NCBI GenBank assembly: GCA_963786955.1
Contig: CAWBAT010000003.1
Location: 160,001-224,000 of the forward strand
Origin: an uncultured Acidimicrobiia bacterium
GTDB taxonomy: Bacteria > Acidobacteriota > Terriglobia > Versatilivoradales > Versatilivoraceae
DNA length: 64,000 bases
Direction of reading: 5' to 3'
Shown here: piece after piece, positions 7,453 through 40,735 of the stretch
How the letters are laid out: every line of letters starts with the position of its first letter
Numbering within the stretch: the stretch's first letter is position 1
Notes under the pieces: model-generated
What the model saw: only the letters and a program-made list of their open reading frames with translations
What the model was told of the DNA's origin: nothing
The model's database searches: none
Position numbers and translations under genes: made by a program

Positions 7453-7454
7453 CA

Positions 7455-7884: not shown

Positions 7885-7916
7885 ACATTCAATTTCTAAG
7901 AATAATTCTAAGCAAT

Positions 7917-7972: not shown

Positions 7973-7973
7973 G

Positions 7974-17577: not shown

Positions 17578-17580
17578 CTG

Positions 17581-18440: not shown

Positions 18441-18478
18441 AGCCGCATCAACCTGTGCCGTCTTCTAGTAGGGTCGAG

Positions 18479-21262: not shown

Positions 21263-23489
21263 GGGCGGCCTCGGTTTCAATCGCTTCAAGGAGAGATTCA
21301 GGCGTAACCGGTACGTGAAAAAGGTGAATTCCGGTGGCATTTTCAATGGCGTTGACAATCGCTGGAGCTGGACCGTCGATCGGCAGTTCTCCGATACCCT
21401 TTGCCCCTGAAGGTCCACGCCCGGAAAGTTTTTCTTCGAAATGAATCTTGATGGTCGGAATATCCACGGCCGTAGGGATAAAGTAATCAGACAGCCTCGG
21501 ATTGGCCATCTGCCCGTCACGCCAGACCACGTTCTCAGAAAGGGCGAATCCGATCCCCTGTGCAACGCCCCCCTCGATCTGTCCTTCAGCGAGTACCGGA
21601 TGGATGACTTTCCCGACTTCTTGCACCGCGACGTAGTTGTCAACCTTCGTCTCGTAAGTATCAAGGTCCACTGTGACCTCCGCCACATGGACGGCCCAGG
21701 CGTAGGCCTCGTACGCGTCGCCATGGCAGCACTCGTCATCCCAAGAGAACTCTGCGGGAGGCGCGTACTGGCTTTCCGATCTCAGGGACCCGCGCCTCAT
21801 GATGTATTGCTGGCAGGCCGAGAGAAATTCGTCTGGACCGGAGTCGTCGTGCAGTAACCCATCCTTGAGGAGGATCTCCTTCATCTTTTGGGCTGCATTC
21901 TCGACAAGTCTACCAACAATCATGCAGGTGCGAGAGGCAACGGTAGGACCGCTGTTTGGAACCTTGGCCGTGTCCGGCTGCGAAATATCCACCTTTTGGT
22001 AATCAATCCCTAGGGCGTCGGCGGCGATCTGGCAGAGGATCGTGTTGGTTCCCTGGCCAAACTCAGTGCTGGCCACCCGGATGCTAATCCGCCCTTCACG
22101 GGTCGCCTCGAGCTCGACGACTGATCTTAAGAGATCCTCGCCCTTTCCGGTGAACCCCGCGCCGTGCATATAGACGGAAAGGCCGATCCCCTTCTTTGCA
22201 CGACTGGAGCGGTTATACGCCGCAAAGCGCTCGCGCTTGGCCTGGTAATCCGAAAGCTCGATTGCGCGGTCGAGCAGTTGATCGAGGTCAACATCGCCGC
22301 TGACGCGCTGACCAATGGCGAGTGACTGTCCAGAGTGAATGAAGTTACGACGCCGAAATTCGTCCGGCGGAAGGCCGAGCGCGTGGGCGACCCGGTCAAA
22401 ATGTCGTTCCAGGGCGAAGATGCTCTGCGGGGCTCCAAAGCCGCGAAAAGCTCCATTCGGCGGGGTGTTCGTCGCTACCGCTCGGCTGCGAATGCGAATG
22501 TTTGGACAATGATAGACTCCCGCAGCATGGATCGTGCCGCGCGCGAGGACGACAGGAGAGAGGGTTGCGTAGGCGCCACCGTCGATGACAAAATCAATTT
22601 CCATCCCGAGTAGAGAGCCGTCCTTGCCGAGGGCAGTGCGATGCTTCGTGCAAGAGGGGTGCCTCTTTGTCGTGGCCAGCATGTCTTCGGTTCGATCGTA
22701 AACAAGCTTGACCGGTCGCCCCGATTTCCATGCGAGGAGCGCAGCATGCCCCGCAATCATTGACGGATACTCTTCTTTGCCGCCGAATCCGCCGCCGGTC
22801 TCCGTCTGAATGACGCGAATTTTTTCGTCCGGGAAACCGAAGAGTCTTTTGACTGCCTTATGGACGTAGTAAGGGCACTGCAAGGAACCCCAAACGGTAA
22901 CTCCCTCGATCGAGTCGAAAACTGCGACCATCCCATTGGTCTCTAAATAAAGCTGTTCCTGTGCTCCCGTCCGGTACTCACCTTCAACGACGACCTCGGC
23001 TTGGTTCCAGATTGCGTCGATATTTCCCTTGTTGACGGTATAGGTCTTCAAGACGTTGTCTTTGCCCCACACGATCGGATCCTGTTTCAGAGATTCCTCA
23101 ATGGACAAGACTGGAGTCAATGGCTCGATCTCAAACCGCACCCGCCGGCGAGCGTCCTCAAGTAAATACTTGTCTTTGTGGGCGAGGAGGACAACAGGCT
23201 CCCCTGCGTGGTTGACGAACCTGTCCGCCAGGTATGGCTGGTCATCGAGAATTAATGAGACGAGGTTTTCTCCAGGGATGTCTCTGGCTGTCACGATCGT
23301 AAATTCTTCCCAGGGGACATCCGGATCGAAGTGTACTTTAACAATCTTCCCCCGGGCGCACGAACTGCGGACAGTTGCTCCGTGGATGAGGTCTGGCAGA
23401 ACGAGGTCATCAACAAACCGAGATTCACCTATGACCTTTCCATGTCCTTCCTTGCGCGGGACAGGAGAACCGATAGTCTTGTCATTCAT
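21255..23489 (-). CDS. Xanthine dehydrogenase family molybdopterin-binding subunit
   Basis: GGGFGGKE, AFRGFGAPQ, EFGQG, TVASR, GQIEGG, AKGIGE. Confidence 0.93.
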   Translation of the reverse strand: MNDKTIGSPVPRKEGHGKVIGESRFVDDLVLPDLIHGATVRSSCARGKIVKVHFDPDVPWEEFTIVTARDIPGENLVSLILDDQPYLADRFVNHAGEPVVLLAHKDKYLLEDARRRVRFEIEPLTPVLSIEESLKQDPIVWGKDNVLKTYTVNKGNIDAIWNQAEVVVEGEYRTGAQEQLYLETNGMVAVFDSIEGVTVWGSLQCPYYVHKAVKRLFGFPDEKIRVIQTETGGGFGGKEEYPSMIAGHAALLAWKSGRPVKLVYDRTEDMLATTKRHPSCTKHRTALGKDGSLLGMEIDFVIDGGAYATLSPVVLARGTIHAAGVYHCPNIRIRSRAVATNTPPNGAFRGFGAPQSIFALERHFDRVAHALGLPPDEFRRRNFIHSGQSLAIGQRVSGDVDLDQLLDRAIELSDYQAKRERFAAYNRSSRAKKGIGLSVYMHGAGFTGKGEDLLRSVVELEATREGRISIRVASTEFGQGTNTILCQIAADALGIDYQKVDISQPDTAKVPNSGPTVASRTCMIVGRLVENAAQKMKEILLKDGLLHDDSGPDEFLSACQQYIMRRGSLRSESQYAPPAEFSWDDECCHGDAYEAYAWAVHVAEVTVDLDTYETKVDNYVAVQEVGKVIHPVLAEGQIEGGVAQGIGFALSENVVWRDGQMANPRLSDYFIPTAVDIPTIKIHFEEKLSGRGPSGAKGIGELPIDGPAPAIVNAIENATGIHLFHVPVTPESLLEAIETEAARD

Positions 23490-24159: not shown

Positions 24160-24858
24160 ATGTGTAGAACATTTTCCTTCATCGGGTCATTGGTCTTTAT
24201 TGCGATTTCCCTCTTCGGAGATTCAGGGAAGTCAGAGGCTCTGACGATCAACGAACAGCTCATTAGCGCCGCCGAACAAGGAGACACTTCCATGGTCTTG
24301 AAACTTCTTTCGAATGGAGCAGACATCAATGGACGGGACGCGCGCGGTCGCACCCCCGTTATGGCTGCCACGCATGGCAACCGCGTCACAACCGTCAAAG
24401 CCCTCATTCAGGCAGGAGCAGATATCAATTTGCGCGACAACATGCTGGACAATCCCTTTTTGTATTCGGGGGCCGAAGGGCTGCTGGATATCTTGAAGCT
24501 TACCATCGCGGCTGGAGCCGATCCAAAGTTGACAAATCGGTTTGGGGGGACTGCCCTCATCCCGGCGGCCCAACGTGGACACGTGGAGGTTGTGCGAGAG
24601 ATTTTGGTGCACACCCAGGTGGACATCAACCATATTAACCGGCCAGGATGGACGGCGTTACTCGAGGCGATTGTGTTGACGGATGGAGGCGTCAAGCATC
24701 AGCAGATCGTGCAATTGTTAGTGGATCACGGGGCAGACGTGACGATTCCGGATAAGGAGGGCGTCACGCCGCTCCAGCATGCACAGAAGAAGAATTTTAC
24801 CGCCATCGTAGATATTTTAACTAAGGCCGGCGCCAAGAGTACAGTCTCGCCCCAGTAG
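24160..24858 (+). CDS. Exported ankyrin-repeat protein
   Basis: Repeated GRTPVMAA, GGTALIPAA, GWTALLEA and GVTPLQHA with GADIN linkers; hydrophobic N-terminus. Confidence 0.9.
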   Translation: MCRTFSFIGSLVFIAISLFGDSGKSEALTINEQLISAAEQGDTSMVLKLLSNGADINGRDARGRTPVMAATHGNRVTTVKALIQAGADINLRDNMLDNPFLYSGAEGLLDILKLTIAAGADPKLTNRFGGTALIPAAQRGHVEVVREILVHTQVDINHINRPGWTALLEAIVLTDGGVKHQQIVQLLVDHGADVTIPDKEGVTPLQHAQKKNFTAIVDILTKAGAKSTVSPQ

Positions 24859-24929
24859 TCATTAGCGCGCTGGCTCTTAACGAATTTCTCACAATACAAT
24901 CTGCCCGATGGAGTCACAAACCTACCCCC

Positions 24930-25694
24930 ATGCATTACCAGTTTGCCACGGAACAGCAGAATTATTCGGACCTCGCCAGCGGCCGAGTGTTTTACAGTCG
25001 GCCCGGGCATCCTGCTTTCCCAATCCGGCTTGCAAGTGAAATATTTCAGCGCTGCATGGCCATCCGAACCGCGGAGCGTTTGTCAACTCCGTGCGTTCTT
25101 TTCGACCCCTGCTGTGGCGGTGCGTATCACCTGAGTGTGCTGACCTACCTGCACCGGGACTGCATCCGGGAGGTCATTGGCTCTGACGTTGATAAAGAAG
25201 CGGTCGCGTTAGCCCAGCGAAACCTTGAACTACTGAGCGTCAGCGGCCTAGATCAGCGAATCCAAGAGATCACCGAGATGATCAGTCGATTTGGAAAAAC
25301 TTCTCATGAGGAAGCCCTGAAAAGCGCAGCTGTTTTGCGACAGACCGTCTCTTCTTGGGAAGAAAGATTACCTCTTAAGATCAGCACTTTTCTGGCCAAC
25401 GCCGGAGACGGCATTACACTGTGTGATAACCTTAAAGGGGTGAAAGTGGATATCGTTCTCACGGATGTTCCTTATGGTCAATGTTCCAGTTGGAGCAGTT
25501 CCAATTCCGAGGTCTCACCTTCCGAACCCCTGTGGTCGATGCTCACCGCATTGTTGGGGATACTATCGCCAACTGGCATCGTGGCCATAGTTTCCGATAA
25601 AAGTCAGAAGATCAAGCATCAGAATTACGAAAGGCTGGAACAGTTCCAGGTTGGTAAGCGGCGAGTCGGCATCCTGCGGCCGGTAGTTTCGTAG
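24930..25694 (+). CDS. AviRa-like SAM-dependent rRNA methyltransferase
   Basis: NYSDLASGRVFYSRPGHPAFPIRLASEIFQR, motif I DPCCG, SDVD and TDVPYG match the AviRa family pattern. Confidence 0.8.
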   Translation: MHYQFATEQQNYSDLASGRVFYSRPGHPAFPIRLASEIFQRCMAIRTAERLSTPCVLFDPCCGGAYHLSVLTYLHRDCIREVIGSDVDKEAVALAQRNLELLSVSGLDQRIQEITEMISRFGKTSHEEALKSAAVLRQTVSSWEERLPLKISTFLANAGDGITLCDNLKGVKVDIVLTDVPYGQCSSWSSSNSEVSPSEPLWSMLTALLGILSPTGIVAIVSDKSQKIKHQNYERLEQFQVGKRRVGILRPVVS

Positions 25695-29061: not shown

Positions 29062-30435
29062 ATGTCAGAAAATCTTTTTACTTATTTGTTTTGTGCGCTC
29101 GTTCTAGCGGTTCCCTTGATCCTTTACCTGAAAAGCCTAAAGAACAGGGAACGGCGAGCGCAGGAGGCTGCAGAAAAGGGGAAGCTGTATTCCGAGGGGC
29201 CCAGAGCCCAGCATCCTCACATCGACACAACTTATTGCATTGGCTGTCAAAGTTGCACGATGGTGTGTCCGGAGGGGGATGTCCTCGCCATGTTAGGCGG
29301 CAAAGCGGTCATCGTAAACGGTTACAAATGTATCGGGCATAGCCTATGCGCCGAAGCCTGTCCAGTCGGCGCCATTACAATGGTGATGGCCGAACCGAGC
29401 ATGAGTGCCGACATGCCATTTATAACGCCTGAGTATGAGACGAGTGTCCAGAACCTGTTCATTGTTGGTGAGCTCGGCGGTCTAGCCTTAATCAAGAACG
29501 CCATTAACCAAGGGCGTGATTGCATTGATACGGTCACGAATCGAATCGCAACGATGGGGGCTTCAGAATTGGTCCCGGGTGTTTACGATGTATTGATCAT
29601 CGGGGCTGGTCCGGCAGGGATCAGCGCTTCGCTTCGTGCCATCGAGAGGAAACTCAATTACATCGCCATCGAGCGGGATGAGATCGGGGGCACGGTCGCG
29701 AAGTATCCCCGCCAGAAGCTGGTGATGACGAGCCCAGTTGAATTTCCTTTGTCTGGGAAATTCAGGAAGACGGAACTCTCTAAGGAAGACCTCCTATCGT
29801 TTTGGAACTCTGTTTTGCAACGAGTTGATTTCAATGTTCGTGCAAATGAAAACGTGGAGAATATTCAGAAGGGGGAGGACGGTATCTTCGTAATCTTAAC
29901 AAACAAGGGACAATACCGCTCTCGCGCCGTGGTCCTGGCGCTGGGAAGGACCGGAACTCCGCGGAAACTCGGAGTCAAAGGAGAGGAACTGCCCAAGGTC
30001 ATGTACCGTCTGATCGAGGCGGATCATTACATCAACAAGAAAATCCTCGTGGTCGGCGGAGGTGACAGCGCTATAGAGGCAGCCATGGGGCTTGGGCACC
30101 AAAGAGGGAACAAGGTAGTTCTTTCGTATCGAAAAGAATCTTTCAGCCGGATCAAAGACCGAAACGCCAAACGCCTCGCAGACTGTGTTCGTACCGGGAA
30201 AGTTCATGTGCTATTCAACTCACACCCCGTGGAGTTCACCGAAGATACGGTTGCTCTCGAAGTCAATGGCGAGCAGTTGGAGATTACTAACGATTTCGTT
30301 TGGATCTTTGCCGGAGGCACGCCTCCGAATGACTTCCTTAAGAAAATCGGTGTCGAATTTGGAGTGCGGGACATGACCTTGGAGGCAAGCAGCGAGGCTA
30401 AACAAGCCGCTCTCGCTAAGTACTCTGGTTCATGA
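29062..30435 (+). CDS. Membrane-anchored 4Fe-4S ferredoxin / FAD-NAD(P) oxidoreductase (TrxR-like fold, no redox CxxC seen)
   Basis: N-terminal TM helix; CIGCQSCTMVCP and CIGHSLCAEACP; Rossmann motifs IIGAGPAG and VVGGGDSA. Confidence 0.88.
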   Translation: MSENLFTYLFCALVLAVPLILYLKSLKNRERRAQEAAEKGKLYSEGPRAQHPHIDTTYCIGCQSCTMVCPEGDVLAMLGGKAVIVNGYKCIGHSLCAEACPVGAITMVMAEPSMSADMPFITPEYETSVQNLFIVGELGGLALIKNAINQGRDCIDTVTNRIATMGASELVPGVYDVLIIGAGPAGISASLRAIERKLNYIAIERDEIGGTVAKYPRQKLVMTSPVEFPLSGKFRKTELSKEDLLSFWNSVLQRVDFNVRANENVENIQKGEDGIFVILTNKGQYRSRAVVLALGRTGTPRKLGVKGEELPKVMYRLIEADHYINKKILVVGGGDSAIEAAMGLGHQRGNKVVLSYRKESFSRIKDRNAKRLADCVRTGKVHVLFNSHPVEFTEDTVALEVNGEQLEITNDFVWIFAGGTPPNDFLKKIGVEFGVRDMTLEASSEAKQAALAKYSGS

Positions 30436-30617
30436 CTGCATTCGTGTATTTTTAACCAGAGTGCTTAGTTTGTTGCCTGCCTCAATTTCCGGCATGAGGA
30501 TGGCGGATTCTGAGGGGCCAATTTGGGTGGGAAAATGAGATGCGAATCAGATTGGAGATTCGCTTGCTCTTAACCGACAAATAGATTATTGATGCTCGGT
30601 CGATCAAAAGCGGATTG

Positions 30618-32549
30618 ATGAAACGATTGGCACTTCGCCCCATTCTCTTGAGTTCATTATTTCTGTTGCTCGCGACGCCAGTTCGCTCGGCCTTCGCGCA
30701 GGTCTCACCGGGACCTCTTTCCAAAGCCCATAGTTCCTTGAACGGCCTCACGTAACTGCACTTCCTGCCACAGCTTTGGTGGAGGGGCGGGTAAGTTCAA
30801 ATGCGTTGAGTGCCACAAAGAGATTCTTCAACGAGTTCAAGAAAATAAGGGATATCACGCGCGAGTCGTCGATAGGAGTAAGGGGGGCCAGGATTGCATT
30901 CGCTGCCACGCCGAGCATTTAGGAGAAGACTTTGCCATAGTTCATTGGGAGCCGAGCCGCGAAAACTTTGACCACCGACAGACTGCTTACCCGCTCCTGG
31001 GAAAGCACGCCACTCTCGAATGTAGCCGCTGTCATAATCCTTCTCACATCGGTGCCGCCGAGTTGCGCGTTTTGCAGGGGAAAGATCTGAAGAAGACTTT
31101 TCTCGGGTTATCACAACAGTGCGTCGCTTGTCATAAAGATGTGCACAACGGCCAATTGGGTGAGAATTGCACTTCCTGTCATACCTTCCAGTCCTGGAAG
31201 GAGAAAGGAGGGTTCGATCATCAGCGGACTTCGTTTCCGTTGACCGGGCTGCACCAGCAAGTTCCCTGTCAGAAATGTCATCTCCTGCCCGAGAACGGCA
31301 CAGCTGTGGCGAAATACAAGGGAATAGCCTTTAGCCGCTGCACAGACTGTCACCGCGACCCCCACCAAGGTGCGTTTCAAGCGGCCTGCCATACCTGCCA
31401 TACGACAGGAGGGTGGAAACAAGTCAAGAAACTTTCCGGTTTTGACCATCAATTAACGAAGTTTCCATTGAAGGGGATGCATGCGGAGGTGGTCTGCGCA
31501 AAATGTCATCCAACCAGTAATTTCAAGCAGCCACTGCCTCATGCGCTGTGTGTGGATTGCCATAAAGTAGATCCTCACAACGGACAATTTGCGAAATCGC
31601 ACGGATCATGGCGAATGTGGAAGTTGTCATGTGGAAAAGGGATTTAAACCAGCGACATTCGCCTTGGAACATCATCAGAAAACGAGCTATCCACTGACGG
31701 GAAAACACGAAGCGGTCGTCTGCGCTAAATGCCATATTCCTAATGGAGCCAAGACGCTTTATCGTCTCAAGTACGAAGCCTGTCTGGACTGTCATAAGGA
31801 TGTCCATGACGGCCAATTTGCCGGCTCTGGATTACGGAACCGCTGTCAATCCTGCCATACGGTACAAGGGTTTCAACCCAGCACTTTTACACTTGCCCGG
31901 CATAGTGAGACTCGCTTCCGACTGACGGATGGTCATATCGCTGTGCCTTGTCTGGAGTGTCACAAGAGGCCGGCAAACCGTTATCCGCTGCCCCCGGCAC
32001 GATACAAGTTTGAACTCCTCGAATGCCAGTCCTGCCATAATGATCCGCATGGTGGAGAGTTTGCGGCGCGCGTCGAGAAGGTTTCTTTAAATGGTGGGAA
32101 GGACGATTGCCTCAGCTGCCACAACCTCAAGACCTGGAAAGACGTCGTGAAATTTGACCATGCGGAAACAAAGTTTCCTCTCTTCGGAGCTCATCGCGTG
32201 GTGGCATGCGCGGATTGTCATCGGCCGGACAACCTGGGGAGGGGTGTCCAGAATATTCGCTTCCGCATGGCCCCGAAAGACTGTGGTGGCTGCCATGAAA
32301 ACATTCATGGTGACCAGTTCAAGGTCGACGGCCACAGCCCGGATTGCTCTAGTTGCCATGACGTTTCGAAATGGAAGCCTTCTAAGTTTGATCATGAGAA
32401 AAAGGGCGCGTTTCTCCCTGGCTGGTGCGCACCAGTCTGTCCCTTGCCGTCTTTGCCACAAGTCGAAAATTGAAATTGAGGGGCGCGCCATGCTGATCTA
32501 TCGCCAGGCGCCAAAACAGTGCTCAGCTTGTCATGCAGACAAAACTTAA
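30618..32549 (+). CDS. Exported multiheme c-type cytochrome, ~23 CxxCH, rebuilt across ~3 apparent frameshifts
   Basis: MKRLALRP signal peptide, QVSPGPLSKAH, then CTSCH, CVECH, CIRCH, CSRCH ... CRLCH, CSACH with repeated FDH..T.FPL.G.H spacers. ORF pieces at 31063, 31589 and 32154. Confidence 0.88.
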
Positions 32550-32897
32550 ACAGTGGACTAGCGAAGGAGCAATCGATTCATGGTTTCGTTGAGAGTCGGC
32601 ACGATGCCGCATTCGCACTGGCTGCCTCTGTGAAGCAATCAGCCGAGCACCGCAGATGGGTACAATGTAAAAATGGCCGCAAGATTGTAAAAAATCCTCG
32701 GAATCTTCAAATCACCGTGACTTCAATGTGCAAATGATTTTCGGGAAATTCATGTTTTCTTGCTTCCTCGGATTTTCTCGATACATCTACTCCCGCTCAA
32801 CTTTCACCCACCTTGCACCACTTCCGTTTCTATTCCCTAATTTGAGCCGTTGTTGAATTCCCAACCCCAACCAACTAAGACGGGCCTTTCTGAGTAT

Positions 32898-32913
32898 TGG
32901 CCAATGAGTTGCA
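32898..32913 (+). promoter_or_regulatory. Putative sigma54 (-24/-12) promoter
   Basis: TGGCCAATGAGTTGCA has exact GG-N10-GC spacing, ~140 bp upstream of the large cytochrome gene. Confidence 0.5.
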
Positions 32914-33050
32914 ATCAATATGATTTGGTCTTTAGCGCACAACCATTCGCAAACTTTTGAAATACAAATTGAAACAAGCTGGAAAACTCTGTACTAACGA
33001 GAGTCTTCTTTACTCTGCAGGCATGAAAGAGCAGATTCTTTCGCTTACAA

Positions 33051-36000
33051 TTGACAGGCTTCAGTGGACAGCGCGTGAAACACGGGAAGCGCCGCGTGCG
33101 GCTGGCTCATCGCTCGAAGGTCGCTAGGGCCAGTTCAATTTTTTCACGGGCTGCGTTGGTACTGCTCTTTCCTTTGTCTTTCGTTTCTCCTCATGTTCTC
33201 AGCAGGGCTATGCAGCCGACAAACGAAATCCTCACGGCTCGTTACAGCTAGTTTGTGAGAGTTGCCACACGACCATAAGTTGGAGGCCAATCCGGAGCAA
33301 ACTAGAGTTCGATCATAACCATGATACCCGTTATCCTTTGCGTGGGTTACATGAAGGAGTGTCTTGTACCAGTTGTCATCGCAGTCTGATATTTAACAAT
33401 GTCGGGACAAAATGTGCTGACTGTCATGCGGATATTCATCGAAGACAATTTGGTCCTCGTTGTGAAGATTGTCATACCGTGCAAGGTTGGAAAGTTAATG
33501 TCCAATCGGTACGGAATCACCTCAACCGTTTCCCCTTGCTTGGGGCACATGCCGCCATCGACTGTGATTCCTGTCATCCAAAGGCTGCCACGAGGAGTCT
33601 ACATTGGTCTCAGCATGGATTGTGTGTCCTGTCATCTCAAAGACTATCAGGGAGCAACCTCTCCAAATCATGCCAGCGCTAATTTCCCACTCACCTGTCA
33701 GACCTGCCACGGAGTTGATCGATGGCAAGGTGCGAAATTTAACCATGCTCAGGTAACCGGATTTGCGTTGGTTGGAGCGCATGCTCAGTTGGAATGCAGT
33801 TCTTGTCACAAAGGACAGCAGTTTAAAGGAACTCCGCGAGATTGTTTTGGATGTCATGCGCAAGACTATAACCGAACAACGAATCCCAACCATGTGGCTG
33901 CCAATTTCCCGAAGGACTGTGCCATTTGTCATGACTCAGAGCATTGGCAAGGAGTCCGATTTGACCATAGCCAGACCGGGTTTGCACTGACGGGGGCGCA
34001 TGTCACGGCGCGATGCGATACCTGCCACCAAGCTGGGCGGTATAAAGGAACTCCAAGAGAATGTTTCAGTTGTCACGTCGCGAAATACGAGGGAACCCAA
34101 AACCCGGATCACCGAAAGGCAAACATCTCGACTCAGTGCGATAGTTGCCACACAACGTCCAATTGGCAGGGGGCCAAGTTTGACCATACATTGACTAAAT
34201 TTGCCCTCACCGGGGCTCATGTCTCAGTCAATTGCACTCAATGCCATGTGAAGGCCAGTTTTCGGGAACCCCCACGGACTGTTTCCTGCCTTATAGCTGC
34301 CATCAGTCAGCTTACAACTAAACCACTAACCCGAACCATCAGAAGGCAGGTTTTTCTCAGAACTGCACGGTCTGTCATACGACTCAGCAGTGGAAAGGCG
34401 CAAAGTTTGACCATAACAACACCAAATTTGCCCTTACCGGGGCTCATAGCTCAGTCGGTTGTGCCCAATGTCATGTGGGAGGGCGGTATGCCGGAACTCC
34501 GACCGATTGCGTCTCCTGTCATTTAAAGGATTTTGATGGAACAACATCACCCAATCACACGGACTGCTAATTTCCCGCGAGATTGCACGGTTTGCCACAC
34601 CACTCAACAATGGAAGGGGGCAAAGTTTGACCATACCAAGACCCGCTTCCCGCTAACTGGCGCCCACATCACCACGAGCTGTGCGCAATGTCACATCAAT
34701 GGAAAGTATACTGGGACGAGCACACAATGCATTGCTTGTCATCAGACTGATTACAATGGGGCAAAGAACCCCAATCACCTTACGGCAGGCTTTCCCGAAG
34801 GATTGCATCGTTTGCCACACCATCACCGGCTGGAAAGGCGCTCGCTTTGATCATAATTCCACGCGCTTTCCGCTGACCGGCTCACATACCAGTGTAAGCT
34901 GTGACAAGTGTCACGTCGGTGGGCAATATGCGGGGACGACGATGCAGTGCGTCGGGCTGTCACAAGGCGGACTACAATGGAACCACAAACCCCAATCATG
35001 TTGCTGCAGGTTTCCCGCAGGACTGCACGGTCTGTCACAACACCGTTCAATGGAAAGGCGCCCACTTTGATCATAATGGCGCGACGAAATTTCCGTTGAC
35101 CGGTGCTCACATTTCTGTCAACTGCAGTCAATGTCACCTGAACAACCGGTTTGCCGGAACGCCATCTGACTGCATCGCCTGCCATCTGGCGGATTATAAT
35201 CGGAACCACGAACCCCAATCACAAAGCAGCAGGATTTCCGCAGACTTGCACGCACTTGCCATACGACGGCGCAATGGAAGGGAGCTCGTTTTGATCACTC
35301 GACGGCCACGCACTTTCCACTTACAGGAGCCCATGTCAACGTTGCTTGTACCCAATGCCATGCCAACAACCGATTTGCCGGAACACCTACGGATTGTGCC
35401 TCCTGTCATTTGAGTGCTTATAACGGAACCACAAATCCCAACCATGTGGCTGCGGGATTCCCTAAAGATTGTTCTTTGTGCCATACGACGACGGCCTGGC
35501 CGGGAGCCAAGTTTGATCATTCGCAAACCAAGTTCCCACTGACGGGCGCTCACGTATCGCTTACTTGCAGCAATTGTCATAGCAGTGGAAAGTACGCCGG
35601 GTTGGGCACGTCCTGTGTCACTTGCCATTTGAAGGAATACAACGCCACGACCAATCCCAATCACGCTGCCGCTGGTTTTCCGCAGGATTGTCAAACCTGC
35701 CACAGCACCACCCAGTGGAAAGGCGCTGATTTTTGATCATAGCAAGACCCGCTTCCCATTGACCGGTGCCCACAGAACCGTCACCTTGTGTGAGTTGTCA
35801 TATCGGTGGACGATACGCGGGAACGCCCATGGATTGCTACAGTTGCCATCGAACTGTATATGAAACCGTGAGCAATCCGAACCATCTTTCCGCCGGCTTC
35901 CCCAAGACCTGCGAGACTTGCCACACGACGACGACTTGGACGGGCGCAACCTTCAACCACAAATTCCCAATTTATTCAGGGACACACAGAGGGAAATGGA

Positions 36001-36168
36001 CCACTTGTAACGATTGCCACACCAATCCGGCGAATTATTCGTTGTTCAGCTGTATCAAATTGTCATACCCACGATAAGACCCCCATGGATCAGAAACATT
36101 CGGGCGTTCGAAACTATGTTTATAACAGTGTGAACTGCTATGCCTGCCATCCAACAGGGAGCAATTAA
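33051..36168 (+). CDS. Very large multiheme c-type cytochrome, ~40 CxxCH in tandem triheme modules, rebuilt across many apparent frameshifts; start uncertain
   Basis: Repeating ~75-aa unit FDH..T.FPLTGAH....CxxCH......GTP.DCxxCH..DY..TTNPNH.AAGFP.DCxxCH....W.GA. Ends NCYACHPTGSN with TAA at 36166-36168. Confidence 0.88.
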
Positions 36169-37841
36169 ATGTTGAGAACGATCACCGTTTATTTTGTGCT
36201 CTTCTGCCTTTCTTTTCAGGCCCTTTCTGCCGCTCCGCAGAACGAGGAAAAACAACTCTCTTTTAGGGTCAAATATGTGGCGGCCGATGCCATCTATCTG
36301 GATTCAGGTCTCGAGGCGGGTCTTAAGGAAGGGATGGATTGACCGTCAAGCGGCTCTTGCCCGGAGAGCCGACCATGGCAGCCAAGGTCGTTGGCGAAAT
36401 TGTGGTGACCTCGCTGGCAAGAAGCTCAGCGGTGTGCTCGATTGAATCGTCACAGCTCCCCTTTCAGACGGGGGACATGGCTTTCCTGTCTCAACAAGAT
36501 GCCGAAGCCGTGCACGCCCAGAGCGCTGCGGCAGGCCGAAAATATGCTCAAGTCGTGACGTTTACAGAAGGGGATCCACTGGATGAAGAGATGCGGGAAA
36601 TGGTTCCCCATCCACCGCTTCCCGAAGTGAACCGTATTCGTGGAAGGATTGGTTTCGAAAACAGCAGCATTTGGGATCGCGGAAGCGGGGGGGGCCATTC
36701 TCTTCAGACAGGGCTCGTCGTTAGAGCGGACATGACGAGGATCGGGGGAACCTATTGGAACTTCACTGGCTATTGGCGGGGTCGCATCAACTCCCGTAAT
36801 ACCGGGCCGCAACAGCAAACCCTCACTGACTTGCTCAACCGGACTTATCAGATTGGGCTGCAATACGCCAATCCCCAATCCCGGCTCGTCGCCGGAATCG
36901 GTCGGCTCTATATCCCTTGGGCCAGCAGCTTAAGCACAATTGACGGAGGCTATTTTGGAGCCAGGTTGGGTAAGAATGCCACTGTCGGGTTTTTTGGCGG
37001 TTCTACGCCGGATCCCACAGCTTGGAATTACAACCCGGACCGGCAAATCGCTGGAACCTTCGTCAATTTCGAAGGGGGATCGTATGAACACGTTCGCTAT
37101 ACCAGTACGACTGGTATCGCTTTGACTCGGGTGCAATTCAGGCCGGAACGTGAGTATGCTTTTTTTGAAAACGCGCTGTTCTTCAAGAAATACATCTCAA
37201 TCTATAACAATCTGGAAGTAGACAAATTGACTTTGGGACGCTTTGGGAGCCTCGAGAGCGGGCCTGCGGTGAGCCGAAGTTTCCTGACCGTCCGATATCA
37301 GCCTCACCGGAGAATCGCCTTCGACGTGAATCAAAATTATTTCCGGAACATTCCTACATTCGATACCCGGCTAATTGGGATTGGGCTTCTCGACCGCTAC
37401 CTGTTCCAAGGGTTAAGCGGCGGGGTTCGACTGGAATTACCGTATCGGGTTACGCTCTACACAAGTCTGGGAAGAAGCAAACGCGATTCGGATTTCAAGC
37501 CATCCTTAAACCAGATGTATGGCGTTACATTCAACAGGGTATGGCGCACCGGAATCCGCGCCGATTTTCGTTATTCGCAATTCGATAGTTCCTTTGGAAA
37601 GGGATCTTATTCGGCGATCTCATTTTCCCGAGAAGTGACTGACAAGCTGCGTATAGAGTTGCAAGGGGGAAAGCAAACTCTCGCTTCACCCTTCACTCAA
37701 CAGAGCGATACCTTGTGGATGAACGGTTCATTTGACTATTTTCTAGGGACCCATTACTTCCTGGGTGCCGGTTACATGATTTATCGAGGGCAGGTACAGG
37801 ATTACGACCAATCGTACATTAACTTAGGATATCGATTCTAG
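36169..37841 (+). CDS. Outer-membrane beta-barrel (putative porin of a porin-cytochrome complex), frameshift near 36338
   Basis: ATG directly after the cytochrome stop; signal peptide MLRTITVYFVLFCLSFQALSA; many aromatic/Gly-rich amphipathic strands; C-terminal YINLGYRF. Confidence 0.8.
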
Positions 37842-37916
37842 AGTGAGGTGAATTCCGGTGCTGTTCGGATCAATGTCACAACTCCTATCGGGAGAGGGAA
37901 GGTGTGAAGAAATTCC

Positions 37917-38058
37917 GCCGGGTCGGGGGACCCGGCCTATAACACGGTGGCAGGCGGTTTGGAAGGTTGCAGGCTTGGGGCTTTATCAAAGCCCCAACCT
38001 CACGCGGCGTTTTCCAATTATTTCACACCCTCAGGGGGACGCTCAGAGAGCGCCATCG
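37917..38058. repeat. Cluster of REP-like palindromes inside the cytochrome cluster
   Basis: gccgggtcgggggacccggc, ttggggctttatcaaagccccaa and gacgctcagagagcgcc hairpins. Confidence 0.55.
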
Positions 38059-38124
38059 AAATCAATTCTTTCATGCCTTGAGGATTTTGGGGCTGAGGAG
38101 CAGACCGTTTATTCAAGACTTCTG

Positions 38125-38940
38125 ATGATTTTAAGAATGCCATTAGGTTTTGCCGGATGGGGATACTTCTGTTTCATTTCGCTAATCTTTTCCCTCCAAC
38201 TTAAGGTCTCTGCCTCAGAATTTTCTTTGGACACAGTTCTGGATAGGACCGGAAAACGCGTCGAGAAGCTACTGGATCGGTTTTCCGAGGTCACTTGCAC
38301 CGAGGTCGTGTCGCAAACGAAGCTTGGCCCAAGCGGAAAAGTAGCCTCGCAAACAAAAGTGACCTTCGATACATTAATCATCCTGCAGATGACGGACGAT
38401 GATATCAGTATCGAGGAGTCGAGATTGGAGCAAGGGAAACCAATCAAAGGGAAGAATACGGAAAAATCCTTGCTTGTGACCAACGGATTCTCAGTATTCT
38501 TGATGGTCTTTCATCCCTCTTTCAGAAGCAGTTTTGAATTCGAATTGGGAGACACGAATGATTTGGGTGGGCAGCGAATGCAGATCGTCCATTTTCAGCA
38601 AGTTCGTGGAAAACGGTCTCCCTCGGCTCTCCAATTGAGGGGACGCGACTACCCACTTGAGTGGGAAGGGGAAGCCTGGGTTGATCCCCGCACCGGCTAT
38701 GTTGCCCGAATGACGGCAACACTAAAGACAAGCTTGGAAGATGTAGGGCTCAAAAGCCTGAGCAGTGAAGTCGTTTATCAACCGGTGACATTTGTGGGGG
38801 CCGGGGAGACCCAATGGTTACCGTCAGTTGCCATGATCGAGGCTGTGTCGTTAAAGCAACACTGGAGGAACACACATCAATTTTCAAATTACCGTCTCTT
38901 TTCAGTCAACACGAGCACTAAGACTGAGGATCCGCAATGA
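38125..38940 (+). CDS. Exported hypothetical protein (beta-rich, LolA-like envelope type)
   Basis: Hydrophobic N-terminus, CTEVVSQ, WEGEAWVDPRTGYVAR, WLP, FSNYRLF; stop overlaps the next ATG (ATGA). Confidence 0.7.
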   Translation: MILRMPLGFAGWGYFCFISLIFSLQLKVSASEFSLDTVLDRTGKRVEKLLDRFSEVTCTEVVSQTKLGPSGKVASQTKVTFDTLIILQMTDDDISIEESRLEQGKPIKGKNTEKSLLVTNGFSVFLMVFHPSFRSSFEFELGDTNDLGGQRMQIVHFQQVRGKRSPSALQLRGRDYPLEWEGEAWVDPRTGYVARMTATLKTSLEDVGLKSLSSEVVYQPVTFVGAGETQWLPSVAMIEAVSLKQHWRNTHQFSNYRLFSVNTSTKTEDPQ

Positions 38941-39888
38941 AAGAAAGAATGACTTTGGCGCAACCCGTGCGTCTTTTGTCTATCCCTCTAGTGGGGCCCA
39001 ATCTCCGTCATCGAGCTTGTCTCGGAGCAGCCTGGCTGGTGGCTGGGATTCTCATCGTGAGCTTGGCGATCCACGGTTACACCTACTATAAGCTCCCGCT
39101 GCCCAAAGAGTCTTTTCTCCCTTTCATGCATCCTTGAAACCGAGTGGAAGCATCGGACTCCGACTTGGAATATTGGGTACTGTTCTTTTCGGATTTCTCT
39201 ATTTATACCTCATCCGAAAACGCTGGGGTTGGCTGGGCAGGATTGGAAAAACAAGACATTGGCTCGACTTTCACGTACTTTTCGGTACTACCGCGCCAAT
39301 TATCATCACGTTTCATTCCTCCTTTAAACTTCACGGGCTGGCAGGGGTGGCTTACTGGATCATGATGGCAGTGATGATCAGCGGTATCGTTGGTCGATAT
39401 CTCTACGCCATGGTCCCGAGGAGTTTAAGTTCCATGGAAATGTCGTTAAAGAAATGGAAGAAATCATTGCGCTCCAGTCCCGGCAGTTAGGACATCAGGC
39501 ACTCGTCGGGACGCAGGAATTGGAACCCCTATTCCAGGTACCGTCTGCGGATGAGGCCCGGCGCATGTCACTTTATCGAGCGCTGTTAACCCTGGTATGG
39601 CTGGATTTGGCGCGGCCCTTTCAAGTCAGCCGGTTGCGACGGCAGTCCATCTCTCCCTTCACGAAGTTCATCACCCTTGGAGGACTTTTCCCTTCCAGGG
39701 ATGAAGTCCTGGAGACGATTGTCTCAACGGCCAAACGACAGTCCTTGCTGCTCACACGGATACTGTTCCTCGACAGGATTCACCAGGTATTTCATCTCTG
39801 GCATATCGTGCACCGGCCGTTCAGTTATTCTTTTGCAGCGCTTGTCGTTGTCCATATTGGGGTCGCCTTGTGGCTCGGGTATTTTTAG
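38937..39888 (+). CDS. Polytopic inner-membrane protein with His in TM segments (ferric-reductase/cytochrome b-like), two apparent frameshifts
   Basis: Pieces at 38937, 39134 and 39454: WLDFHVLFG, ITFHSSFK, SGIVGRYLY, WHIVHRPFSY, VVVHIGV. Confidence 0.75.
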
Positions 39889-39906
39889 TGAACGGATAAA
39901 AAACAA

Positions 39907-40530
39907 ATGAAAAAAAGTATGACGAAGACGCGGCACTCCATACTACTCCTCAGTATTATCCTGGTGACCGGTGCTCTCATCTATTTCACGTTGCCCAGAA
40001 AATCGACTTCACTATCCAAGGTGACGAAAGTAAATCCTGTTGCGGCCCCGGAGATGCAGAAGGAGCATGCCGATAAAGGTGAAAAGTCCCATGAATTAAG
40101 AACCCTGGAGGCGCAACTCCAACAGAAACCGGATCATACTCCAATTCTGTTGCGGCAGGCCGAGATCTATCGCGAAATGGGAAAGCCCACAGAATCGGCG
40201 AAGCTTCTAAAGCAAATTGTTGCCAATGAACCGAACAATTCTCAGGCACAATTAGAGCTAGGCCGAGTTCTCTATGATTCCGGGGACATTCAGGGAGCCA
40301 TCGCAGCGACGAATACGATCCTGAAAAATGATCCCAAAAATACAGATGCCCTCTATAACCTCGGGGCGATTTATGGGAATCTGAATAACGAAAAACTGGC
40401 CCAAGAGTATTGGAACCGTACCATTACCGCTGACCCTTATTCCGCAAGTGCTGATCTTGCCCGTCAAGCGCTGACCCGCATGAGTCACTCGGCGGGTGAA
40501 ACTAGTCAGACCGCGAAAATTTCGAAATAA
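39907..40530 (+). CDS. Membrane-anchored TPR protein
   Basis: N-terminal TM; TPR motifs AQLELGRVLY and ALYNLGAIY. Confidence 0.85.
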   Translation: MKKSMTKTRHSILLLSIILVTGALIYFTLPRKSTSLSKVTKVNPVAAPEMQKEHADKGEKSHELRTLEAQLQQKPDHTPILLRQAEIYREMGKPTESAKLLKQIVANEPNNSQAQLELGRVLYDSGDIQGAIAATNTILKNDPKNTDALYNLGAIYGNLNNEKLAQEYWNRTITADPYSASADLARQALTRMSHSAGETSQTAKISK

Positions 40531-40735
40531 TTGAAAGTCCGGGCTTTTGCCAGGCTTGGCTAATGTTTTTCTCGAATCTTTTGTGACTCAATTATTTTTA
40601 GTTTGTCTTTTCGAATGTTGCTGGCAGGACGGGGGCAATGGGCTCTAGTCTAAAATGGTAATGGAGCAAGCTAAATTTGGTTCAGACCGTTCCGCGTCAA
40701 GGACCGCACGTGGATTGTACGGTCAACTCGCCATT

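Follow-up and report, generated by a model that had tools for sequence, protein, structure and literature searches.

Gene content of the locus

The locus at 29062–40530 on the forward strand of the window (the whole 64,000-nucleotide stretch of DNA analysed) raises the question of whether its genes could carry electrons across the entire cell envelope and, if so, in which direction. Seven genes in one orientation were delimited here, as a sequence-only reading had described, and both of the tight junctions in that reading were present: the TAA of the longer cytochrome gene (36166–36168) abuts the ATG of the barrel gene (36169), and the next two genes are joined by an ATGA overlap at 38937–38940. 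On balance, the cluster as a whole is probably best explained as a porin-cytochrome conduit across the envelope, most likely exporting electrons, and this explanation is advanced with modest confidence. A terminator-like hairpin lies directly after the last gene (40539–40559, forward strand); this is weak evidence, since such sites were no commoner in the region than in shuffled sequences.

CxxCH motifs in all six frames of the window numbered 64, and 59 of these lay on the forward strand within 5.4 kb (30757–36136), distributed over all three forward frames; the other five were scattered. Two cytochrome genes were recognised, both of the c7/c3 multiheme type in profile searches: c23 (approximately 30618–32546), a 23-heme c-type cytochrome with a Sec signal peptide, and c40 (approximately 33136–36168, the start being approximate), with about 40 hemes. 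Reading through the frame breaks gave 23 motifs in c23 and 39 that were still readable in c40, while in L001, the closest relative, the intact proteins have 23 and 40; the earlier estimate of about 63 motifs, in proteins of roughly 23 and 40 hemes, was therefore accurate. The c23 product was 75% identical to the intact 646-aa protein of L001. The c40 homologue of L001 has 1039 aa (26.0 aa per heme), its motifs being spaced by 16, 25 and 32 residues with a period of 73 aa, and c40 accordingly consists of 73-aa triheme (c7-type) repeats followed by a distinct C-terminal end. Twelve stretches of c40 matched Pfam Cytochrome_C7 (150.6 bits); the scores against NCBIfam TIGR04257 (29.3 bits, cut-off 40) and, for the C-terminal end, the DmsE/MtrA model (36 bits, cut-off 192) were below threshold. 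No lipoprotein signal is seen in the sequence of either cytochrome.

Frame breaks in the cluster

The sequence-only reading had attributed the fragmentation of the cytochromes to indels, and when the genes were aligned with the intact L001 proteins, allowing for frameshifts, three breaks fell in c23 (approximately 30750, 31597 and 32405) and 11 in c40, along with one in-frame stop (approximately 34321). With one break in the barrel gene (approximately 36338) and two in the gene for the inner-membrane protein (approximately 39100 and 39447), there were 17 frame breaks and one stop. If these are real, the cluster would be a decaying pseudogene array in this genome, as the earlier reading had allowed. 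Four of the seven genes are broken, the breaks are far denser than in adjacent 900-aa ORFs (with a density in the cytochrome genes about 4.6 times that elsewhere in the cluster), and fast evolution is reported for multiheme cytochrome genes in the cited account (PMC12977616). However, 62 of the 63 expected heme motifs survive, and the differences from L001 were concentrated at third codon positions, both in c23 (0.18/0.13/0.57 at positions 1/2/3) and in c40 (0.13/0.08/0.55). Every segment between breaks keeps this pattern; any decay would therefore have to be extremely recent and to consist of 17 indels. That 13 of the 14 breaks in the cytochrome genes are +1 insertions outside homopolymers weighs, like their density there, against the artefact reading, but an insertion bias is not the usual outcome of natural bacterial gene decay either. 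Other genes in the window are split as well (23S_rRNA_IVP, PSCyt/PSD1 and Oxidored_FMN), and fragmented cytochromes were confined to loci with one style of title, 'MFD..bin contig_' (10 of 30, with none among the 23 remaining loci; Fisher p = 0.003). Genuine decay was judged very improbable. Because the coding pattern is kept in each segment, and because intact relatives have exactly 23 and 40 motifs, these sequence comparisons indicate that the breaks are most likely assembly errors.

Conservation across genomes

A pattern search of species genomes returned 549 matches, of which 540 were confirmed barrel loci; the best 80 of these 540 were almost all from Acidobacteriota. Judging from these genomes, the cluster is common in soil Acidobacteriota. 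Among the 68 loci kept with at least 3.5 kb of downstream DNA, the gene pX followed the barrel gene in 64 and the inner-membrane protein (IMP) was present in 61. The flavoprotein gene g1 directly followed IMP in 46 of 61 loci with at least 5.2 kb downstream, and was missing from the fetched flanks in the other 15, including L001. In 36 of the 39 loci having two intact cytochrome ORFs the first had exactly 23 motifs, as it does in Emticicia, and in 36 of the same 39 the count for the second was 22+3n, with a range of 22 to 97. Plasmid NC_018749.1 of the cultured Emticicia oligotrophica carries a corresponding set of six genes, namely IMP with g1 immediately after it, the 23-heme and a 40-heme cytochrome, the barrel and a small lipoprotein, beside ccsA. 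The gene set thus recurs in most related loci and extends beyond Acidobacteriota into another phylum, in keeping with the co-conservation that the sequence-only reading had expected. By their record titles the hosts were Acidobacteriota of soils and peat; Emticicia is heterotrophic.

Outer-membrane and accessory proteins

The product of 36169–37841 (557 aa when read through) had been described as a beta-barrel, and structure prediction bore this out. The AF2 model of a 504-aa piece (pLDDT 77.7, pTM 0.67) contained 22 strands between residues 103 and 503; the predicted order is a signal peptide, a small N-terminal beta domain, a disordered linker and a 22-strand barrel ending in GYRF. Every one of the 50 Foldseek matches listed was an outer-membrane barrel (FimD, MOMP, AlgE, Occ and TonB receptors among them), and MtrB was absent from the list. 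In sequence, the protein matched nothing in Pfam (MtrB/PioB family included), NCBIfam or the PDB.

The next gene, pX (approximately 38125–38940, intact), encodes a secreted protein of about 270 aa whose family is unassigned and whose signal peptide was read directly from the sequence. The 360-aa ORF at 37858–38940 is probably too long; a start at 38125 is more likely in view of the signal peptide and of relatives with 255–300 aa. Pfam gave no match in 60 members of the family and no PDB match was found; the sole lead is that its language-model neighbours are LolA/TP_0789/MucB-like. The last gene (39907–40530, intact) encodes a membrane-anchored protein of Pfam TPR families, which resembled the CcmH/CycH TPR domain below threshold (E = 6e-6, 26.6 bits, cut-off 42); 20 of 60 loci had a homologue on the downstream side of the barrel gene.

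The inner-membrane module

The g1 gene (29062–30435, intact) encodes a membrane-anchored iron-sulfur flavoprotein comprising an N-terminal transmembrane helix, a 2x[4Fe-4S] ferredoxin domain and a TrxR/YpdA-type FAD and NAD(P) domain. It matched Pfam Pyr_redox_3 (5e-45) and Fer4 dicluster families, and its nearest solved proteins were YpdA/Bdr (1e-32), thioredoxin reductases and TrxR-type ferredoxin-NADP reductases. Alignment of g1 sequences showed that both GxGxxG motifs are invariant and that invariant cysteines are confined to the ferredoxin domain (C59/62/65/69 and C90/C96/C100, with H93 near-invariant); the flavin domain lacks a conserved pair of cysteines.

IMP (38937–39888; 317 aa when read through) was modelled by AF2 with five transmembrane helices and a helical insert at residues 165–277 (pLDDT 90.2). 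Two WX3HX13H motifs and one SGXXG motif were read in the window copy, the former on helices 3 and 5 and the latter on helix 4; W109/H113/H127, S149/G150/G153 and W289/H293/H307 were invariant in 64 sequences. IMP is presumed to bind two b hemes through the four invariant histidines. It did not match the ferric-reductase family PF01794 (E = 0.48), a PDB profile search found nothing, and a PDB fold search gave nothing at E ≤ 0.001, the best being cytochrome b561 (E = 1.4).

Five fused g1-IMP proteins were found in other bacteria. P0121 (743 aa) matched g1 at 43% identity (E = 2e-108) and IMP at 34% (E = 7e-27) and kept both histidine motifs, while P0122 and P0124 join Fer4 (PF13247) to a relative of the window IMP; the protein atlas also contained an 805-aa Myxococcota cluster with Pyr_redox and Fer4 families (TM 0.76 to IMP). 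Complex prediction for the L004 pair scored 0.45, against 0.00 for the best control, and the runs agreed in at least 66% of contacts with partner pLDDT of at least 67. Of 80 solved complexes 58 attained the mark, as against 2 of 110 mismatched pairs; in the range ≤ 0.60, just 7 of the 80 passed, together with both of those mismatches. The L004 result is weak support. Since g1 and IMP are fused in some bacteria, they suggest a NOX-like, quinone-independent route from NAD(P)H to the outside.

Route and direction of electron flow

The proposed route is built on gene content, domain families, invariant ligand residues, the predicted barrel and five-helix folds, co-conservation and the g1-IMP fusions. 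In the cytoplasm, membrane-anchored g1 would move NAD(P)H electrons to FAD and then to its own two [4Fe-4S] clusters. These would reduce two b hemes within IMP, stacked so as to span the inner membrane and held by the histidines of helices 3 and 5, in the manner of NADPH oxidase or ferric reductase and bypassing quinones. The invariant 23-heme cytochrome would cross the periplasm to the predicted 22-strand barrel, within which a cytochrome may be seated, and the variable triheme-repeat cytochrome (about 40 hemes here) would prolong the chain outside the cell. The final acceptors may be insoluble or polymeric; Fe(III) minerals and humic matter are candidates.

The same conduit could run inward, drawing on Fe(II), Mn(II), reduced humics or cathodes as outside electron donors and delivering through IMP to the quinone pool. 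For PCC3 and PCC4 of iron oxidisers, the nearest clusters in the literature, He et al. (2017, PMC5566968) proposed this opposite direction, with electrons taken up from Fe(II) and passed to quinone; PCC3 genes are reported as expressed in an iron oxidiser (bioRxiv 10.1101/2025.02.27.639646), and multiheme conduits are described as reversible (PMC10734462). However, IMP is partnered not by a quinone-site protein but by a flavoprotein of NAD(P) type, with which it is fused in some bacteria. Electron transfer from Fe(II)-level donors up to NAD(P)+, and against the membrane potential, is energetically unfavourable. Furthermore, the hosts are not known iron oxidisers, and inward flow was considered unlikely.

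Alternatively, the outer conduit could be as described while IMP acts as a quinol dehydrogenase, standing in for CymA, ImcH or CbcL, with g1 in a side role (maintenance or regulation). Most of the 15 loci without g1 nearby keep IMP, a quinone-active cytochrome b was suggested by He et al. (PMC5566968), and in the window g1 stands at the upstream end, five genes from IMP. This separation also counts against the export route, as do the absence of g1 from those 15 flanks, the missing ferric-reductase match, the lack of a lipoprotein signal in both cytochromes and the absence of MtrB among the Foldseek matches listed for the barrel. Yet g1 directly follows IMP in most loci and in Emticicia, fusions exist, and the complex score, if weak, was positive relative to controls. 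Profile searches of Pfam and NCBIfam recognised no quinone-site family in IMP and no NapC/CymA or NrfD family in the cluster, the latter as the sequence-only reading had reported. A quinol dehydrogenase was regarded as decidedly unlikely, and export from NAD(P)H remains the preferred reading.

Comparison with known systems

The sequence-only reading had inferred a trans-envelope conduit and had tentatively likened it to PCC4; its parts list proved real and co-conserved, but the label did not hold. PCC4, as outlined by He et al. (2017, PMC5566968), has a porin and, in the periplasm, three cytochromes (4, 5 and 10 hemes), with the extracellular cytochrome absent, whereas two cytochromes of 23 and about 40 hemes occur here; these heme counts, the repeat-rich long cytochrome and the membrane protein of about 300 aa fit PCC3 instead. 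Likenesses to the PCC4 outline are the porin, the multihemes, an IMP with the same motifs and extra redox genes, including an Fe-S gene adjoining or fused with IMP.

Compared by published description, the architecture matches the predicted PCC3 of iron oxidisers and other Proteobacteria, for which 21–27 periplasmic and 10–85 extracellular hemes are given (He et al. 2017, PMC5566968; Hoover et al. 2023, PMC10734462). As in those accounts, a porin gene lies beside two very large multihemes, the longer being repeat-rich and T/A/G/S-rich, and a five-helix IMP of about 300 aa carries WX3HX13H in its third and fifth helices and SGXXG in its fourth; He et al. noted the likeness of the PCC3/PCC4 IMP to NOX/ferric reductase (PMC5566968). 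The described PCC3 order is extracellular multiheme, porin, periplasmic multiheme, IMP (bioRxiv 10.1101/2025.02.27.639646), unlike c23, long multiheme, barrel, pX, IMP, g1 in this cluster. PCC3 hosts are given as Alpha-, Beta- and Gammaproteobacteria, rather than Acidobacteriota and Bacteroidota, and PCC3 porins as having up to 42 transmembrane segments, against 22 predicted strands; the conserved pX, FeS-flavoprotein and TPR protein fall outside the published PCC3 outline.

MtrCAB of Shewanella and the Pcc complex of Geobacter (OmaB-OmbB-OmcB) likewise pass a cytochrome chain through an outer-membrane barrel to an outer cytochrome. However, MtrB/PioB and DmsE/MtrA profiles did not place the window proteins in those families, heme numbers are 2–10 times larger here, and the cluster lacks a lipoprotein outer cytochrome and a CymA-type quinol dehydrogenase. 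The NOX/FRE proteins (PF01794) resemble the inner module in that a cytoplasmic NAD(P)H flavoprotein would feed two b hemes for export across the membrane, the hemes would be held by histidines paired 13 residues apart, one pair on each of helices 3 and 5, and IMP with the helix of g1 would make six helices plus a cytoplasmic dehydrogenase. They differ in that g1 belongs to the TrxR type, not the FNR type, and has a 2x[4Fe-4S] relay in addition, IMP is usually a separate polypeptide and matches PF01794 proteins significantly in neither sequence nor fold, and the acceptor would be a cytochrome chain rather than O2 or Fe(III) chelates. If the route is correct, two huge multihemes would conduct electrons from NAD(P)H out of the cell without the involvement of quinones. 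Finally, c40 is a string of triheme c7-type units like the Geobacter c7-type 'nanowire' cytochromes (TIGR04257), presumably comparable with the multidomain cytochromes of GSU1996 type, but it has far more units and is linked with a barrel and a module in the inner membrane.

Heme motifs, gene junctions and frame breaks

Across the six frames of the window 64 CxxCH motifs were found, 59 of which lay on the + strand between 30757 and 36136 and were spread over all three frames. A stop-to-stop map of this region gave a chain of overlapping open segments, switching frame repeatedly; elsewhere in the window there were intact ORFs of more than 900 residues. The stop codon of the second cytochrome gene (c40, ~33136–36168), a TAA at 36166–36168, was followed directly by the ATG of the barrel gene at 36169, while an ATGA overlap at 38937–38940 joined the genes of a secreted protein (pX, ~38125–38940) and an inner-membrane protein (IMP, 38937–39888). 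The cluster, the tight junctions and the heme-rich region described in the sequence-only reading were thereby confirmed.

Frame breaks were located with a frameshift-aware script that aligned the intact proteins of the closest relative, L001, to the window. The first cytochrome gene (c23, ~30618–32546) had 3 breaks and c40 had 11, plus one in-frame stop; 13 of these 14 cytochrome-gene breaks were +1 insertions, mostly outside homopolymers. One -1 break was identified in the barrel gene (36169–37841) and two more -1 breaks in the IMP gene, all in A/G-rich runs, and the genes of the FeS-flavoprotein (g1, 29062–30435), pX and a TPR protein (39907–40530) were intact. Two further calls of the script, at ~38181 in pX and at ~30419 where g1 ends, were dismissed as artefacts of unconserved ends, both ORFs being open in one frame. 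Reading through the breaks gave 23 motifs for c23 and 39 for c40, against 23 and 40 in the L001 counterparts, which bears out the ~23- and ~40-heme cytochromes counted by hand at the outset.

The frame breaks are most likely errors of assembly and not signs of decay, judging by codon positions, by other split genes and by the style of record titles. Differences from L001 at the first, second and third codon positions were 0.18, 0.13 and 0.57 for c23, and 0.13, 0.08 and 0.55 for c40. The third-position excess was present in every segment between breaks, and therefore selection has kept every local frame. Genes outside the cluster were also split: 23S_rRNA_IVP (7458–7992, - strand) was found in two halves, PSCyt1/PSCyt2 and PSD1 lay on overlapping ORFs (7974–11148, - strand), Oxidored_FMN (62452–63922, + strand) was cut at profile position 248 of 342, and GGDEF adjoined DUF4388 (58457–59469, - strand). 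This points to indel errors throughout the assembly, far more sparsely spread than those of the cytochrome genes. Among related loci, fragmented cytochromes occurred in 10 of 30 with titles of the form 'MFD...bin... contig_', which we take to be long-read assemblies, and in none of the 23 others (Fisher p = 0.003). The fragmented loci also leaned towards +1, for example by 6 to 0 in L070.

The sequence-only reading had allowed for real frameshifts in a decayed cluster. Were the breaks real, decay would have to be very recent, and we consider this very improbable given that the coding pattern relative to L001 is kept between all breaks, that further genes of the window are split, and that fragmentation is confined to a single title style. 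The breaks are concentrated in the cytochrome genes (14 in 5551 nt, against 3 in 5439 nt for the other five genes), where they are biased towards insertions. In what follows the breaks are treated as assembly errors.

The barrel and its downstream neighbours

In the predicted model of the barrel (pLDDT 77.7, pTM 0.67; the L001 protein has 557 aa), a small N-terminal beta domain and a disordered linker precede 22 strands, and the chain ends in GYRF. The matches listed by Foldseek were outer-membrane barrels only, among them FimD (7.8e-10, TM 0.35), MOMP, AlgE, Occ and TonB receptors, so the beta-barrel assigned from sequence was upheld by both model and matches. An MtrB-like fold in particular was rejected, the barrels returned being generic and MtrB being absent among the 50 matches listed. 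Pfam and NCBIfam gave no match for the barrel, nor did Pfam for any of 36169–37841, 37858–38940 and 38937–39888.

The L001 pX has 275 aa. A Pfam search of 60 family members returned nothing credible and a PDB profile search gave 0 hits. Its neighbours in the protein atlas were LolA/TP_0789-like (0.89–0.93); a function of that kind was not adopted, since these neighbours stood alone beside the empty Pfam and PDB searches. Pfam identified TPR repeats in 39907–40530 (203 aa in L001). A weak match to the CcmH/CycH TPR, together with a ccsA gene beside the related cluster of Emticicia, makes this protein a candidate that may help in cytochrome maturation.

Relatives and gene order

Of 8000 candidates scored against the barrel piece at 36327–37838, 3148 were related to it at E ≤ 0.001; the matches listed were hypothetical proteins of ~555 residues from Acidobacteriota/Terriglobia/Bryobacteraceae, with no Pfam domain. 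A barrel profile run against 1.84 billion cluster representatives recovered 1392 relatives at E ≤ 0.001; 933 of them reached 1e-10 and 310 reached 1e-30. The relatives include forms of 900–1150 residues with N-terminal extensions (P0126–P0132, P0135) and a distant subfamily (~530–550 aa, 22–26% identical). A further profile search yielded 22 proteins.

Scanning one genome per species, 185,579 species genomes in all, with the barrel alignment gave 549 pattern matches and 540 confirmed barrel loci. Synteny was counted by tblastn with the proteins of the window in the best 80 of these 540 loci, whose titles name Acidobacteriota lineages in 79 cases and Dormiibacterota in one. Where at least 3.5 kb was available downstream, pX followed the barrel in 64 of 68 kept loci and IMP in 61 of 68, with both present in 61 of 68. 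Where at least 5.2 kb was available, g1 came directly after IMP in 46 of 61; identity to the g1 of the window was at least 60% in 32 of these 46 and ~40% in 14. In the remaining 15 of 61 loci, L001 among them, the flanks fetched contained no g1. Downstream of the barrel, 20 of 60 loci had a TPR homolog, and four loci (L045, L048, L052 and L079) had barrel and cytochrome but neither pX nor IMP. The order in the window is g1, c23, long multiheme cytochrome (MHC), barrel, pX, IMP, TPR; most relatives have the order c23, long MHC, barrel, pX, IMP, g1. These counts, with the Emticicia cluster, sustain the earlier expectation of a co-conserved gene set. The ~40% identical proteins form a second g1 subfamily (L006 13382–14806 and 13 other loci), and in L006 an apparent extra N-terminal cysteine-rich, zinc-ribbon-like stretch was noted by eye.

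At 53 loci with at least 9 kb before the barrel, the upstream region held at most two non-overlapping cytochrome ORFs in 43 cases and was fragmented in 10. In 36 of the 39 two-ORF loci the first ORF had exactly 23 CxxCH motifs; the second had 22–97, and its count took the form 22+3n in 36 of the 39. In 22 loci the stop codon of the long cytochrome was located -25 to +29 nt from the barrel start, and in 17, about half of the relatives, a gap of 0.6–1.8 kb separated the two. In L043 this gap (7941–8507) appears by eye to hold an AMIN-like domain and then a proline-rich stretch. Single ORFs rich in motifs were found in L040 (2503–9825, 97 CxxCH, 2440 aa) and L013 (3315–9752, 85 CxxCH, 2145 aa); a further one in L022 (3867–9830, 1987 aa) had 79. 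L025 has a single ORF (3402–9761, 2119 aa) with 84, and both cytochromes may be fused in it because a separate 23-heme ORF is absent. According to record titles, two MAGs each contain the barrel cluster twice, with the copies on separate contigs (L025 with L026, and L065 with L079).

Upstream of the L001 cluster, on the opposite strand (855–4107, - strand), lie two genes whose products, judged by eye, resemble a multicopper-oxidase-like protein and a large outer-membrane protein; the window has a rhamnosidase-like gene in that place. Elsewhere the window carries a purine-degradation block (16732–23489, - strand) with uricase, HIUase/transthyretin, OHCU decarboxylase, an amidohydrolase and the FAD, 2Fe-2S and molybdopterin subunits of a xanthine-dehydrogenase-type enzyme. 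It also has a stand-alone NRPS-like protein of 916 aa with AMP-binding, carrier and thioesterase domains (13861–16611, + strand), and an ankyrin-repeat protein followed by an AviRa-type rRNA methyltransferase homolog (24160–25694, + strand; E 1.9e-73). Promoter and terminator scans of the region stayed at chance level, and an Rfam search of the window gave no family.

A related cluster on an Emticicia plasmid

A tblastn search of plasmids with IMP led to pEMTOL02 of Emticicia oligotrophica DSM 17448. The order there is ccsA, a hypothetical protein (281 aa), an NAD(P)-binding protein (440 aa), two cytochrome c3 family proteins (635 and 1001 aa), a hypothetical protein (538 aa) and a GW-domain protein (256 aa). 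By BLASTP these resembled IMP (29%, 1.5e-39), g1 (41%, 1.8e-116), c23 (37%, 1.5e-138) and c40 (43%, E 0), and the 538-aa protein resembled the barrel (23%, 5e-14); the GW protein did not resemble pX. Exactly 23 and 40 CxxCH motifs are present in the two cytochromes, spaced as in L001.

Plasmid searches with the barrel, c23 and IMP found the full set in Emticicia only; plasmids of Sphingobium, Rhizorhabdus and Methylophaga were set aside as bearing partial or different clusters. On pMSHV of Sphingobium herbicidovorans (L082) the IMP relative (296 aa) is flanked by an 825-aa flavoprotein with a cyclic-nucleotide-binding annotation and by a 10-heme cytochrome, with a 1329-aa multiheme cytochrome nearby. 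This cluster resembles the porin-less clusters in Supplementary Table 6 of He et al. (PMC5566968).

The two cytochromes

The L001 proteins have 646 aa (c23) and 1039 aa (c40), and Pfam assigned pieces of the cytochromes to the Cytochrome_C7/c3 families. A search by sequence for relatives of solved structure (E ≤ 0.001) found none. Both carry Sec-type signal peptides in which no lipobox was seen by eye. Hemes are packed at 28.1 residues each in c23 and 26.0 in c40, the latter being rich in T, A, G, H, C and S and having a period of 73 residues with motif spacings of 16, 25 and 32. Bis-His ligation is possible in both, because histidines outside the motifs outnumber the hemes.

The strict count of 23 hemes over two phyla, set against 22–97 in the other cytochrome, suggests two separate roles. 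c23 would span a fixed distance, that of the periplasm and perhaps of the barrel, and the long cytochrome would sit outside the cell, where its length is free. The ten-heme MtrA is ~100 Å, a figure quoted by He et al. (PMC5566968); extrapolated by proportion, 23 hemes might reach roughly 20 nm and 40 hemes roughly 35–40 nm.

The inner-membrane module

IMP (317 aa in L001) was modelled (pLDDT 90.2, pTM 0.81) as five transmembrane helices (21–46, 72–96, 106–127, 134–159 and 279–313) with a helical insert at 165–277. Invariant in 64 sequences were W109/H113/H127, S149/G150/G153 and W289/H290/H293/H307, the pairs H113/H127 and H293/H307 falling on helices 106–127 and 279–313. Neither Pfam nor NCBIfam gave a family, and Foldseek found no PDB fold match at E ≤ 0.001. 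Membership of the ferric-reductase or cytochrome b561 families was rejected, with PF01794 at E 0.48 and no significant fold or profile match in the PDB.

In g1, a hydrophobic N-terminal helix and basic residues precede the cysteine motifs CxxCxxCxxxCP and CxxHxxCxxxCP. Pfam returned 4Fe-4S dicluster domains and Pyr_redox_3 (5e-45); Fer4 dicluster domains were among the hits and PF13247 was not. The PDB entries closest to the flavin domain were YpdA/Bdr (1e-32), thioredoxin reductases and TrxR-type ferredoxin-NADP reductases (FNR, 6e-15), and the score against NCBIfam YpdA, 175 bits, was below the cut-off of 339.9. Both glycine (dinucleotide-binding) motifs are invariant and the flavin domain has no conserved cysteine pair, and g1 is thus, on its motifs, best assigned to the FNR/YpdA kind of TrxR-type flavoprotein and not to the disulfide reductases.

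Several observations connect g1 with IMP. An atlas structure search with IMP matched a Myxococcota cluster of 805 residues with Pyr_redox_2/3 and Fer4_10 (TM 0.76), and returned IMP-like clusters of Gemmatimonadota, Verrucomicrobiota and Planctomycetota as well. Among longer relatives, five fused proteins were identified, two of which join IMP to Fer4 domains only. P0121, an NAD(P)-binding protein of 743 aa from an Anaeromyxobacteraceae MAG, is g1-like over residues 27–426 (43% identity, E 2e-108) and IMP-like over 476–735 (34% identity, E 7e-27), and it retains both histidine motifs. Prediction of the g1–IMP complex for the L004 pair gave 0.45 (runs 0.37, 0.45 and 0.49), with the best control at 0.00; of the solved complexes 58 of 80 attained that mark, as did 2 of 110 mismatched pairs, and scores up to 0.60 were those of 7 of the 80 solved complexes and of both passing mismatches. 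Contact agreement in these runs was at least 66% and partner pLDDT at least 67. The prediction thus lends weak support to the pairing. Taken together, complex prediction, fusions and gene adjacency would fit a g1 that docks on IMP and supplies the IMP hemes with electrons from NAD(P)H by way of FAD and two FeS clusters. So far as the literature was searched, no description of this input module as such was found.

Direction of electron flow and significance

We read the electron flow as outward from NAD(P)H, because g1 is of the NAD(P)H:FeS kind, because it is fused to IMP in some bacteria, and because transfer in reverse, from Fe(II)-level donors to NAD(P)+, would by established bioenergetics run uphill and against the membrane potential.

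Tentatively, the cluster could be an undescribed and widespread machine for electron export, although we consider this complete reading less likely than not. A NOX-like module that bypasses quinone, consisting of the NAD(P)H flavoprotein, its FeS relay and a di-heme-b membrane protein whose fold is without solved relative, would pass electrons to a 23-heme 'periplasmic ruler', then through the 22-strand barrel to an extracellular wire of 22+3n hemes (up to 97), the length of which would vary in steps of three hemes.

Acidobacteriota rank with the most abundant bacteria of soil and peat, and their anaerobic respiration is poorly understood. If the reading is true, those of soil could dump reducing equivalents directly onto minerals or humic matter tens of nanometres off the cell. 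A conserved conduit would offer a specific molecular candidate for extracellular respiration with iron minerals and organic matter as acceptors, a process of consequence for carbon turnover and methane suppression in wet soils. Its inner-membrane half is possibly a new electron exit with NAD(P)H, not quinol, as the source, and the 23-heme and 22+3n-heme proteins offer natural tests of the maximal length of a single-protein heme wire. Since the cluster is carried on a plasmid of the cultured and harmless E. oligotrophica DSM 17448, it is open to ordinary genetics and biochemistry.

Comparison with known systems

The cluster differs from MtrCAB, MtoAB and PioAB in that the barrel matched no MtrB/PioB-family porin in Pfam or NCBIfam, and the DmsE/MtrA family TIGR03508 scored 36.2 bits against a cut-off of 192.2. 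IMP shares with NOX, FRE, STEAP and MsrQ (PF01794) histidine pairs 13 residues apart on helices 3 and 5, but is without significant sequence or fold match to them. The g1–IMP pair as read here would resemble an NADPH oxidase, but with g1 as a TrxR-type flavoprotein, an FeS relay, and an IMP not tied to the ferric-reductase family; g1 resembles YpdA/Bdr, TrxR and FNR in two dinucleotide-binding motifs and in significant similarity.

Literature searches found no paper on PCC3, a predicted porin-cytochrome c complex, in Acidobacteri, none on Emticicia with multiheme cytochromes, and He et al. 2017 as the sole relevant paper for the HX13H motif. The terms Acidobacteri, Solibacter, FAD, pyridine, 4Fe-4S and Planctomyc do not occur in the seven supplementary tables of that paper (PMC5566968). 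The clusters in a 2026 peat preprint (10.64898/2026.05.27.727921), four in number and of acidobacterial or verrucomicrobial origin, have cytochromes of 8–13 hemes and apparently differ from the present one, going by the heme counts in the preprint's own description.

PCC4, the type named in the sequence-only reading, was rejected as the matching published type. As described by He et al. (PMC5566968), it lacks an extracellular cytochrome and combines a porin with an IMP, additional redox genes, among them an Fe-S (pfam13247) gene upstream of the IMP, and three cytochromes of the periplasm with 4, 5 and 10 hemes; the present cluster has two cytochromes, of 23 and ~40 hemes. The earlier interpretation was right in kind and wrong in the published type that it named. 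PCC3, in the same source, combines a porin, an extracellular cytochrome with a median of 34 hemes (up to 85), a periplasmic one with a median of 21 and an IMP of ~300 aa, and its hosts are Alpha-, Beta- and Gammaproteobacteria. The IMPs of both types are described there as having five helices, with SGXXG in helix 4 and WX3HX13H in helices 3 and 5, and their likeness to ferric reductase domains is remarked on. In Hoover et al. 2023 (PMC10734462), PCC3 heme numbers are 21, 24 or 27 for periplasmic and 10–35 for extracellular cytochromes. A 2025 preprint on Sideroxydans CL21 (bioRxiv 10.1101/2025.02.27.639646) gives the PCC3 order as extracellular MHC, porin, periplasmic MHC and IMP, and states the function as untested.

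With PCC3 the cluster shares a porin-like barrel gene (here a predicted 22-strand barrel) beside multiheme cytochrome genes, and a five-helix IMP of ~300 aa with SGXXG and two WX3HX13H motifs, as read in the window. It also shares two very large cytochromes: its 23 and 39–40 motifs, at 28.1 and 26.0 residues per heme, lie inside the PCC3 ranges of 21–27 and 10–85 hemes at 22–39 residues per heme given in the published sources. It differs in its gene order, which is not the published four-gene order, and in its additional conserved genes. All architectural features of PCC3 that were compared with the published descriptions are thus present except order, and on this architecture the cluster is best placed among the predicted PCC3-like conduits, as a new and very widely distributed form.
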